The notes below the pieces were generated by a model. It was not told the DNA's origin and did no database searches. It saw only the letters and a program-made list of their open reading frames with translations. Positions 32,178 through 34,214 of a DNA stretch of 62,955 nucleotides are shown one piece after another. The stretch covers positions 1-62,955 of the forward strand of contig JADFOF010000001.1 in NCBI GenBank assembly GCA_022563015.1, in the 5' to 3' direction. The stretch comes from Planctomycetota bacterium. GTDB taxonomy: Bacteria; Planctomycetota; Phycisphaerae; Phycisphaerales; UBA1924. Made by a program: the position numbers and the translations under genes. Numbering within the stretch: position 1 is the first letter of the stretch; each line of letters begins with the position of its first letter.

Positions 32178-34214
32178 CTACCGACTGTGATGGTGCATCG
32201 CCAGGTCGATCCAGGCGTCGCTCTTGGCGCTCTCGGACCGAAGCACCGCGGCGCGGCGGCCGGACGACCACTGAGCCACGCCCCACAGAACTCTCGCTGC
32301 CAGGCGTCGAACCGTGCCGCGCGTCGAACGTGTGAGCGCGACGAGCAGTTTCAGACCGTGACGAGCCACCAGCTGGTCTTCGAGCGATATGTAGGTCTCC
32401 GCGAGCCCGGGATCGCCCTGCCGACCCGCGCGGCCGTAGAGCTGACGATCGACGCGGGACTCGGCGTGCCGTTCCGTGGCGATCACCACCAGGCCGCCCA
32501 GCTTGCGCGTTGTGTCGTCGATGATGATATCGGTGCCGCGACCGGCCATGTTCGTCGCGACCGTCACGGCGCCGGAGCGACCCGCCTGGGCCACGATCTG
32601 AGCCTCTTCCGCCTCGCGTGTCGCGTTCAGGATTCGGCACGGCACGCCGCGATCACTGAGCATCTGCCCGAGTCGTTCCGATGAGGCGACGCTGCGCGTG
32701 CCGATGAGCACCGCCCGCCCCTCGTGGTGCAGCGACTCGGTGCGCTTTGCGACGGCTATGAACTTCTCCGCCTCGGTCGTGAACACGCGGTCCCCGGCCT
32801 TGGCGCGGATCACGGGCCGATGCGTCGGCACGCGCACGACCCGCAGGCGGTAGTACTTCCAGAGCTCATCGGAGACCTCCCACGCGGTCCCGGTCATGCC
32901 GCTCAGCTTGCGGTAACGCTGGAAAAACCGCTGGTAGCTCACGCGGGCGCTCGTGACGCGCTCGTCGCTGAGATCCAGTTCTTCCTTGGCCTCGACGGCC
33001 TGGTGCACACCGAGCTGCCACTGTCGTCCGTCGAGCAGCCGTCCGGTCGAGCGGTCCACGATGATGAGCTTGCCCTCCTGGACGATGTAGTCGTCGTCCC
33101 TGACGTACAGCTCCCGCGCGGAGATCGCGCGCACGAGCAACTCCTCGCTGCGCCTTGGTCCCGCCCAGAACGGGGGCAACTCCCCGGCCAGCCCGGCCAG
33201 CTTGTTCCGCCCGGCGTCGGTCAGGCGCACCGTGTGCTGGCGTTTATCGACGGTGTAGTCGTGCTGCGTCTCGAATCGCCCGGCGAGTTCAGCCGCGATG
33301 CGAAAGTGCATGGTCCGCTGCCGGGTGGCGTCGTCGGGCAGTTCCTGGGCAATGATGGCCGGCGTCACCGCCTCGTCGATGAGCACGCTGTCCGCCTCGT
33401 CCACGATCGCCGCGTTCAACCCGCGCTGCACGACCATGTCGCCCCAACGGTGGCCTGGCGTGACCTGACTCTCCCGCGTGAGTTCATCCAGGAGCAACGA
33501 GGCCAGCCGCGGGTTCAGCGGCGACACGAGGCGGTCTCTCAGAAAGTCGAAGATCACCTGCTTGTCGGCGGCGTAGGTGACACACCTTGCGTACGCCTGC
33601 TTCCGCTCCAGCTGCGGCATCCCGTCCTGAAGCACCCCGACGGTTATGCCCAGCCGCCGAAATACCGGGCCTGTGATCCGGGCGTCGCGGTCGGCGAGAT
33701 AATCGTTCACGGTGATGACGTGCAGGCCCCGTCCGATCCAGCCCTCGATGGCGGCGGGCAGCACCGCCGTGATCGTCTTCCCTTCGCCGGTGGCCATCTC
33801 CGCGCAGCAGCCGCGCGACATCGCCAACGCCCCCATGATCTGCTCGACGTGCAAAGTGAGCCCGACATGGCGTCGAATGGCTTCGCAGGCCACGGCGTAG
33901 GCCTCGCCCAGCGATTCGCCGGTCGTTCCCACGCACAGCACGGACGCCCTGCACTCATCCACAACCGCGTCGAACGCCGCCTCGCTCAGCTTCGAGTGCG
34001 CCGCCGCTCGGCCGGCGATTCGTTCCGCCTCGCGACGGTCTCTCGCTGGGGCGCGCCGACGAAGCGCACGCGCCGCCAGTCGCTCCGCGATGGCGTCGGC
34101 ACCCCGCGTCGGCGTCGTGCGGACAAATGGCCGGGCCAGCGATGCCCAGAGACGATCATCGACACGCTGATCGTCCGCGCCCCGTACCGAGATGCTGCCC
34201 GACAGCAGGCTCAT
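32178..34214 (-). CDS. SecA-like ATPase, C-terminally truncated (NBD1, PPXD, NBD2 and a short helix only)
   Basis: EMATGEGKT (Walker A), [18 protein letters not shown] (DEAD), [27 protein letters not shown] and [31 protein letters not shown] all match SecA motor motifs. Ends about 70 aa after NBD2. ATGA overlap with the upstream gene. Confidence 0.85.
   Translation of the reverse strand: [678 protein letters not shown]

Follow-up and report, generated by a model that had tools for sequence, protein, structure and literature searches.

Kamneva, Poudel & Ward described "secondary SecA_DEAD domain proteins", whose SecA_SW domain is absent or reduced to a small fragment (PLoS One 2015, PMC4452313). 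Their genes lie in a conserved locus, found in Planctomycetes among other phyla, together with genes for weakly M50-like transmembrane (TM) proteins carrying HlyD, for plain HlyD, for GAF plus HlyD and sometimes for a protein of the OEP family, the extra HlyD and OEP genes being variable or encoded elsewhere. The clade is sister to actinobacterial SecA2, and the SecA_DEAD protein was proposed to be the ATPase of a type-I-like system in which it replaces the ABC transporter, the M50 protein possibly providing the membrane path (PMC4452313). Here, we analyze such a locus in the 62,955 nucleotides (nt) of contig JADFOF010000001.1 from a Planctomycetota bacterium (Phycisphaerales; UBA1924), called the window below, with all positions given on the forward strand. 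Our subject is a minus-strand gene at 32178–34214, which encodes a short SecA-like ATPase of 678 aa composed of a DEAD motor, a preprotein cross-linking domain (PPXD) and a stub of a scaffold helix. With a probability of roughly 0.6, we read this protein as the cytoplasmic motor of an envelope machine that resembles type I systems, does not depend on Sec and is built around two HlyD-bearing membrane proteins.

The window locus shares with the published one a SecA_DEAD plus SecA_PP_bind protein without SecA_SW, the M50/HlyD neighbor and the GAF plus HlyD (biotin-lipoyl) neighbor. Plain HlyD and OEP are not present in the 63 kb, and there is otherwise no essential difference. The core finding and the idea of an ATPase working with an M50 protein were already published in 2015, and the window is another instance. 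What we add is a PqqD-like domain on the protease, the invariance of the M50 catalytic motifs, DUF3467, the LEPR-XLL neighbors and the metagenomic size of the family. The literature searched contained no later experimental work on the system and no report of PqqD, M50 and HlyD together; neither this literature nor Kamneva et al. (2015) links LEPR-XLL, a PqqD-like domain or DUF3467 to the SecA/M50/HlyD locus.

The SecA-like protein keeps the motor and the preprotein-binding domain

A sequence-only reading of this DNA had pointed to an open reading frame (ORF) at 32178–34214. The ORF is real and comprises 678 codons with an ATG start, but its strand had been overlooked: it runs on the minus strand, and the plus-strand reading is ruled out by an internal stop. 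All the SecA motor motifs and both PPXD strings listed in that reading are found in the minus-strand translation.

The region alignable to canonical SecA is preceded by an N-terminal extension (aa 1–57, 34044–34214), Pfam SecA_DEAD matching only from aa 58 (aa 58–452, E 1.6e-81). In an alignment of 100 short SecA-like family sequences, which also provided the family profile used below, this extension carries the consensus RLW..L..P..R..P..G.D, with D40 conserved in at least 90%. The Walker A motif MATGEGKT (aa 140–147, 33774–33797) has T142, G143, E144, G145 and K146 invariant among the 100 members, and the 12-residue Walker B/DEAD box (aa 271–282, 33369–33404) has D272, E273, D275 and D280 invariant. 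Just before the DEAD box, the first nucleotide-binding domain (NBD1) contains a family-specific insertion of 21–28 aa (aa ~231–258, 33441–33524; consensus P..PRL...LLD.L........W). It is absent from B. subtilis SecA, as seen from a gap of ~21 positions in the profile alignment and from the pairwise alignment, which breaks between aa 230 and 259. Both the N-terminal extension and the NBD1 insertion are candidate docking surfaces for new partners.

The PPXD (aa 301–408, 32991–33314) lies where the sequence-only reading had seen it by eye, between the DEAD box and LSGMTGTA (aa 437–444), and is matched by Pfam SecA_PP_bind with E 8.5e-24 over model positions 3–110 of 110. NBD2 (aa ~467–622, 32349–32816) is recognized by P-loop_SecA (from aa 467, E 6e-52) and Helicase_C. 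It includes motif strings at aa 553–563 and 580–603 and an arginine-rich motif, its invariant columns among the 100 members being R559, G560, T561, D562, R587, D589, Q591, G594, R595 and R598. Because none of the 100 sequences deviates in the Walker A, Walker B or NBD2 arginine motifs, the motor looks catalytically competent. A hydropathy scan found no TM segment in the SecA-like protein.

Downstream of NBD2, the protein keeps a stub of the long helical-scaffold helix (aa ~628–672, 32199–32333) and ends 6 aa after it. In the family alignment, Q648 of the stub is nearly invariant and R659 invariant, and D666 also stands out. Q648 and R659 line up with a 14-residue segment of B. subtilis SecA, and the alignment of the stub ends at residue ~605. 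In comparisons with solved SecA chains, the window protein by itself covers B. subtilis SecA residues 33–557, and the family profile reaches residues 10–605 only, of ~800 (E about 1e-214). Pfam gave no match to SecA_SW (wing/scaffold) in the 678-aa protein. Domain limits were taken from the profile alignment to solved SecA chains; scaffold, wing, two-helix finger and tail were placed as in the SecA structures of B. subtilis and T. maritima. NBD1, the PPXD, NBD2 and the first ~35–45 residues of the scaffold helix are retained. The rest of the scaffold is missing, as are the helical wing domain (HWD), the two-helix finger/IRA1 and the C-terminal tail. The alignment to solved chains thus confirms the domain losses proposed from sequence alone for wing, finger and tail; the scaffold, most of which had also been thought missing, is not wholly gone, since the stub of 35–45 residues is kept.

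Compared with canonical SecA (B. subtilis 1M6N, E. coli), motor and PPXD align end to end and all ATPase motifs are kept. Canonical SecA has in addition the wing, the two-helix finger/IRA1, a C-terminal linker with zinc tail and the full scaffold, whereas the window protein has the 57-aa extension and the 21–28-aa insert. Its scores against the NCBIfam SecA equivalog models TIGR00963 and NF009538 are below cutoff (528.7 vs 800 and 533.5 vs 814). We take its C-terminal boundary to resemble that of the E. coli N68 fragment, a proteolytic or recombinant product of ~residues 1–610. N68 binds nucleotide and preprotein and its ATPase is de-repressed, but it does not support translocation.

SecA2 of actinobacteria and of the accessory Sec system of Firmicutes is likewise a second, specialized SecA-type ATPase. 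However, SecA2 retains both scaffold and two-helix finger and has SecY or SecY2 as its partner, whereas the window protein lacks both of these parts and would partner with M50/HlyD proteins. Mycobacterial SecA2 is without the wing domain, yet it uses SecY. All NCBIfam SecA2 models score far under cutoff with the window protein (TIGR04221, 418.2 vs 725; TIGR03714, TIGR04397 and NF012136, 453.6 vs 930, 496.8 vs 1085 and 372.1 vs 1100).

A motor plus PPXD without scaffold or wing was also reported inside giant Omnitrophota and actinobacterial proteins, for which a role in self-export was proposed (bioRxiv 10.1101/2023.11.21.568195). In giant Omnitrophota proteins the module is fused inside, whereas in the window it stands alone as a 678-aa protein whose gene belongs to an M50/HlyD operon. 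One of the best matches of the SecA-like ORF (438 bits) is P0167, a 4930-aa protein from a metagenome-assembled genome (MAG) of a Candidatus Omnitrophota. It has two SecA_DEAD modules with PPXD, five Fis-type HTH_8 domains and no SecA_SW, and fits the class described in the preprint.

Short length is a trait of the family

Nearly all of the 120 best database homologues (119) are 640–710 aa long (range 585–708), and SecA_SW was found in none of these 120. An exhaustive HMMER scan of 1.84 billion cluster representatives gave the same picture: the family fills over 150 clusters at 50% identity, the best 150 representatives are almost without exception 620–700 aa long, and their alignments often reach within a few residues of the query end. 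Of the SecA-like ORFs in metagenome loci, 55 are complete, and their median length is 663 aa. Close relatives are labeled Phycisphaerae or Planctomycetota, and an independent Planctomycetota MAG (locus L001) carries a 97%-identical copy with the same architecture and neighbors.

The truncation suspected from sequence alone is genuine. With the last 238 aa of P0228, a SecA of canonical length, as query, tblastn found no frameshifted continuation in the window (no match at E < 1), and there is no second SecA gene within the 63 kb. A secA pseudogene, truncated or in decay, or an artefact of assembly or frameshift, would be suggested only by shortness relative to canonical SecA. Against it, length, motifs and the C-terminal stub are kept in hundreds of sequences from many samples, no continuation exists in any frame, and the independent MAG has a copy of identical architecture. 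We give this explanation practically no chance, since conservation has already refuted it. Some NCBI records for the family members P0056, P0062 and P0083 read "prepilin peptidase", and JGI has "preprotein translocase subunit SecA"; for the short-SecA family, both names look like misannotations.

The gene closes an operon with two HlyD-bearing membrane proteins

The SecA-like gene is the last of four co-directional minus-strand genes, in the order DUF3467, GAF-HlyD, PqqD-M50-HlyD and SecA-like. The intergenic gaps measure 61 bp (DUF3467/GAF-HlyD) and 34 bp (GAF-HlyD/M50), and direct reading of the sequence shows the stop codon of the M50 gene overlapping the start codon of the SecA-like gene as ATGA. 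Such an overlap is usually taken as translational coupling. Promoter and terminator scans of the operon were uninformative. No ABC transporter is encoded in the operon (32178–38811), nor inside the conserved clusters of relatives.

The gene just upstream of the SecA-like gene (34211–36421, minus strand) encodes a 736-aa fusion of a PqqD-like domain, an M50 intramembrane metalloprotease and HlyD (Pfam PqqD, Peptidase_M50, HlyD_3 and HlyD_D23; NCBIfam). According to the hydropathy profile, the PqqD-like domain would be cytoplasmic (aa 42–104, 36110–36298). It scores 29.7 bits with PF05402 (cutoff 23.4) and is found in 9 of 11 diverse orthologues. The PqqD fold is a leader-peptide recognition element in the pathways of ribosomally synthesized and post-translationally modified peptides (RiPPs). 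The transmembrane M50 core (aa 165–455, 35057–35929), with ~7 hydrophobic segments, contains HEMGH (aa 215–219, nt 35765–35779) and NLNPLLRYDG (aa 313–322, nt 35456–35485), the HExxH and the downstream NxxPxxxxDG-type motif (third zinc ligand) by which M50-type proteases are recognized. None of H215, E216, H219, N313, N315, P316 and D321 varies among 11 orthologues, the most distant of them at 28% identity. The Pfam Peptidase_M50 score of the window protein is 20.2, under the gathering score of 27.2, and all 11 orthologues match at E < 0.01. The remainder of the protein is a predicted periplasmic HlyD/membrane-fusion-protein (MFP) region (aa ~457–736, 34214–35053) matching HlyD_D23, HlyD_3 and NCBIfam RND_mfp (5.5e-13).

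This fusion begins like the RiPP leader peptidases (NF041824 daptide_HExxH; YydH/LiaK), which have the same N-terminal order of a cytoplasmic PqqD-like domain and an M50-type HExxH protease. It aligns to NF041824 from aa 41 to 414 (profile positions 18–366 of 379, E 4e-42) but differs from daptide_HExxH in its extra C-terminal HlyD and in its score of 144.6 bits, below the cutoff of 300. We found no RiPP tailoring enzymes or precursor peptides near the window cluster.

The second HlyD-bearing protein (650 aa) is encoded at 36456–38408 on the minus strand. Its layout is a GAF domain (aa 208–348), predicted to be cytoplasmic, a single TM segment (aa 383–401) and an HlyD region (aa ~401–627), predicted to be periplasmic. 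Matches are to GAF (9e-12), HlyD_D23 (2e-15), HlyD_3, Biotin_lipoyl_2 and NCBIfam RND_mfp (7.5e-24). With the NCBIfam type_I_hlyD model, the two HlyD proteins of the operon score 53 and 25 bits (cutoff 209), and both appear MFP-like rather than bona fide HlyD. This GAF-bearing protein, the PqqD-like domain and DUF3467 had all been overlooked in the sequence-only reading.

The first gene of the cluster (38470–38811, minus strand) encodes a 113-aa DUF3467 protein (Pfam PF11950, E 2.3e-17). In an alignment of its clade, a variable linker joins a very conserved core to a conserved C-terminal tail, GP[KR]L[AS][DQ], which suggests a tethering peptide. DUF3467 immediately precedes GAF-HlyD in 6 of the 8 distinct genome loci, in one distant locus (L014) and in ~17 of 80 metagenome loci, and is a recurrent first gene of one locus subtype. 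Its identity between loci is 64–75%, vs 42–60% for the machinery proteins. The idea that DUF3467 might be a SecB-like chaperone is not supported by the fold model, Foldseek, phmmer or hhalign. The AlphaFold model, made with 63 homologues, is of low confidence (pLDDT 58.6) and shows three strands and a helix. With this model, Foldseek had no significant PDB match (weak PC4-like ones, E 0.3 at best), phmmer against the PDB gave no match, and hhalign gave none against E. coli SecB.

The M50 and HlyD neighbors are constant

In all 8 distinct genome or assembly loci fetched, GAF-HlyD and M50-HlyD precede the SecA-like gene. Three distant members at 37–43% identity (L012, L013 and L014), one of them from the gammaproteobacterium Parendozoicomonas, have the same GAF–M50–SecA-like core, with OEP and small HlyD genes added in L012 and L013 and DUF3467 in L014. 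A metagenome scan seeded with an alignment of the M50 fusion, and so independent of SecA, yielded 80 loci at 30–51% identity. A short SecA-like gene follows immediately after the M50 gene in 45 of the 47 loci that have at least 2.5 kb of downstream DNA. Homologues are therefore not scattered, and the constancy of M50/HlyD neighbors anticipated by the sequence-only reading extends from the 8 genome loci to distant lineages and metagenomes. The two exceptions come from a single metagenome sample and are also without the GAF gene. Their M50-HlyD homologues lie at L066:4711-6879 and L033:2919-5066, and the next gene in L066 is a 272-aa ORF with no family match; this arrangement is either an uncommon variant or a membrane component left as an orphan.

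Nearly every related locus has GAF-HlyD upstream of its M50 gene. OEP and small HlyD are present in L009, L012, L013 and many of the loci L015–L094, and OEP genes are adjacent in ~15 of the 80 metagenome loci as well as in L012 and L013. No SecY gene occurs in the gene lists of the loci examined. In one Phycisphaerae lineage (L007:1423-5468, likewise L008), three genes stand between DUF3467 and GAF-HlyD, encoding a 285-aa TM protein and two paralogues of 483 and 457 aa (33% identical), with no family match. These inserted genes and the ORF downstream in the window were considered as cargo of Phycisphaerae loci and rejected, being not conserved in other loci.

The sequence-only reading had put the adjacent M50 fusion in the place of SecY as the membrane partner of the motor. 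Because the M50/HlyD gene order is conserved and the two genes overlap at ATGA, this proposal has strong contextual support. That the protein could not dock on SecY and would bind the M50 fusion is what we infer from domain loss and gene order.

LEPR-XLL giant proteins are candidate cargo in other lineages

A giant gene adjoins the cluster in 3 of 3 distant long-contig loci, coding for 3549, 3479 and 10641 aa in L012, L013 and L014, respectively. The N-termini visible in L012 and L013 read ...LEERILLSADP and ...LEPRILLSADG, and both pass the curated cutoff of the NCBIfam LEPR-XLL model NF012209. In L011, a short contig, a protein with ...LEPRIMLSADG begins 244 bp after the SecA-like stop. Among the 80 M50-seeded loci, 10 have a LEPR-like N-terminal pattern with a long ORF, compared to 0–2 for four permuted control patterns in the same 987 kb, and in 4 of these 10 the motif is directly downstream of the SecA-like gene. 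Four of the 10 (L053, L055, L072 and L078) pass the NF012209 cutoff and 2 more are just below; L083 is a further LEPR case that the pattern missed. The LEPR-XLL proteins lie at L012:1-2105 (-), L013:1-2436 (-), L011:2552-3943 (+), L053:~1569-2400 (+), L055:1-4236 (-), L072:14288-17950 (+), L078:1808-4906 (+) and L083:16701-22910 (+).

These N-termini are basic and continue with Φ-x-Φ-E-x-[LM]-E-x-R-x-[LM]-[LM]-[ST]-[AT]; none has a Sec-type hydrophobic core. It is plausible from these sequences that LEPR-XLL giant proteins are cargo in other lineages, and likewise plausible that the PqqD/M50 pair acts as reader and cutter of the LEPR-XLL leader.

With type I systems and peptidase-containing ABC transporters (PCATs; HlyB/HlyD/TolC), such loci share HlyD-type fusion proteins, a partner of the OEP/TolC kind in many of the relatives, neighboring genes for giant repetitive adhesin-like proteins and, for PCATs, a protease coupled to the energizing unit. 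They differ in that the ABC transporter is replaced by a SecA-type DEAD motor, and the C39 protease domain of PCATs by an M50 intramembrane metalloprotease fused to the adaptor. In addition, the type I signal is C-terminal and RTX-type, whereas the candidate signal here is the N-terminal LEPR-XLL.

A possible mechanism and its alternatives

In the machine that we favor, the SecA-like ATPase, DUF3467, GAF-TM-HlyD and PqqD-M50-HlyD would act together. The ATPase would be a natural "motor-only" SecA, in which NBD1, NBD2 and the PPXD clamp are kept and the scaffold stub packs against the motor. The lost parts (two-helix finger/IRA1, wing and tail) are those that canonical SecA uses for SecY engagement and for auto-inhibition of its ATPase. 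The motor may dock on the cytoplasmic face of the M50 fusion, on the GAF domain of the second HlyD protein, or on both. Its clamp would hold an unfolded substrate, and ATP would drive feeding into the membrane complex. The PqqD-like domain may recognize an N-terminal targeting segment, which the M50 site would clip. The PqqD-like domain at the start of the fusion and the invariant active site of its M50 part suggest that the protein recognizes and cuts a peptide segment and that its role is not purely structural. The two HlyD-type adaptors would then take the product across the periplasm, many relatives adding a third, small HlyD and a TolC-like OEP. The SecA-like protein would thereby fill the energizing role of the type I ABC transporter, and the cargo in other lineages may be repetitive surface proteins of very large size that carry LEPR-XLL at the N-terminus. 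We infer docking, transport direction, leader recognition and cleavage, passage through HlyD/OEP and the identity of the cargo from these architectures and neighborhoods.

Several observations weigh against this model. Its weakest point is the path through the inner membrane, as site-2 (M50) proteases are not known to act as protein-conducting channels. The AlphaFold single-sequence model of the SecA-like protein was unusable (mean pLDDT 35.3). By tblastn, the 63-kb window contains no OEP gene and no third, small HlyD gene, and neither was found in the flanks of close Phycisphaerae relatives; the genome may carry an OEP gene outside the window. The link to LEPR-XLL is statistical and was drawn from flanks of 10 kb with a regular expression and a hidden Markov model of 24 positions, only some matches passing the cutoff. 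A LEPR-XLL protein is found neither in the window nor in L001–L009 or L015–L021, and all Phycisphaerae-type loci examined are without one. Finally, in expression data re-analyzed by Kamneva et al., the M50, SecA-like and HlyD genes of M. extorquens AM1 are barely expressed in exponential growth (PMC4452313).

Three other explanations place the same parts in a different process. The strongest of them, which we still regard as unlikely, is that the locus exports nothing and is an ATP-dependent machine for regulated proteolysis or signaling, comparable to the AAA+ partners of membrane proteases: the motor would unfold a substrate from cytoplasm or membrane, for example an anti-sigma-type regulator, and thread it into the M50 site while GAF senses a signal. 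M50 proteases classically carry out regulated intramembrane proteolysis, the catalytic residues of the M50 fusion do not vary, the locus has a GAF sensor domain, and a motor without the channel-insertion finger fits an unfoldase. However, two HlyD-type regions are always present, often with a small HlyD and a TolC-like OEP, which is hard to explain without transport, and no transcription factor or anti-sigma gene is conserved nearby. The protein might instead be an accessory, SecA2-like motor that delivers a subset of proteins to the housekeeping SecYEG, with M50/HlyD acting afterwards in signal-peptide clearing and periplasmic guiding. The wing-less mycobacterial SecA2 that uses SecY offers a precedent, as does the M50 protease RseP, which degrades remnant signal peptides. 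The best sequence matches are indeed to SecA/SecA2 structures, and the clade is sister to actinobacterial SecA2 (PMC4452313). Such a role nevertheless seems improbable to us: the two-helix finger/IRA1 and most of the scaffold are missing, unlike in SecA2, whose NCBIfam models all fall well short of cutoff; the coupling to the M50 gene is tight (45/47 loci, ATGA); the gene lists contain no SecY; and the LEPR-XLL N-termini are without the hydrophobic core of Sec signals.

To a similarly small degree, we consider maturation and export of RiPP- or bacteriocin-like small peptides, with PqqD binding the leader, M50 removing it and the SecA-like protein replacing the ABC exporter. The PqqD plus HExxH architecture does match daptide_HExxH and, weakly, YydH/LiaK, and HlyD adaptors accompany bacteriocin exporters, with a weak NHLM_micro_HlyD match here. 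On the other hand, the daptide_HExxH score reaches less than half of its cutoff, neither genes for modifying enzymes nor short precursor genes are kept beside the cluster, and DUF3467 is too conserved and too widespread for a precursor. Furthermore, a SecA clamp fits long unfolded chains, and the recurrent neighbors encode giant proteins.

The type-I-like machine powered by the SecA-like motor may be taken one step further. Short SecA, PqqD-M50-HlyD, GAF-HlyD, small HlyD and OEP (with DUF3467 in one subtype) would then form a distinct class of secretion system, independent of SecYEG and of ABC transporters and dedicated to LEPR-XLL cargo, in which PqqD reads the leader, M50 removes it and SecA threads a chain of several thousand residues into the HlyD/OEP conduit. 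We put this fuller proposal forward tentatively, as a possibility that falls short of the probable.

Other genes of the window

A convergent type II secretion/pilus-like cluster at 24142–32116 (plus strand) lies beside the SecA-like operon. It encodes a GspK-like protein (24142–25461), a PilN-like protein (25458–27197), the secretin GspD (28464–30845) and a 424-aa ORF with no family match (30842–32116), all on the plus strand. A functional link with this cluster was rejected, the adjacency being kept only in the 97%-identical MAG. A gene pair of 677 and 733 aa at 56808–61046 (minus strand), which by size resembles a second copy of the system, actually encodes an MscS-type channel and a type III glutamine synthetase.

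Meaning of the locus

For the gene at 32178–34214 itself, the value of this work is mainly a correct annotation, which is neither "preprotein translocase subunit SecA" nor "prepilin peptidase". The motor-only architecture is a natural experiment on what the two-helix finger, the wing and the scaffold add to SecA. LEPR-XLL provides a concrete cargo hypothesis for a locus that has been without one since 2015, and also for a class of giant proteins whose export route is unexplained. If our model is true, several phyla would run a SecA-derived motor outside the Sec pathway, where it would power a type-I-like envelope conduit. This would be a secretion route made of recombined parts, namely a SecA motor, a site-2 protease, a reader resembling a RiPP recognition element and HlyD adaptors, so far noticed only in silico.

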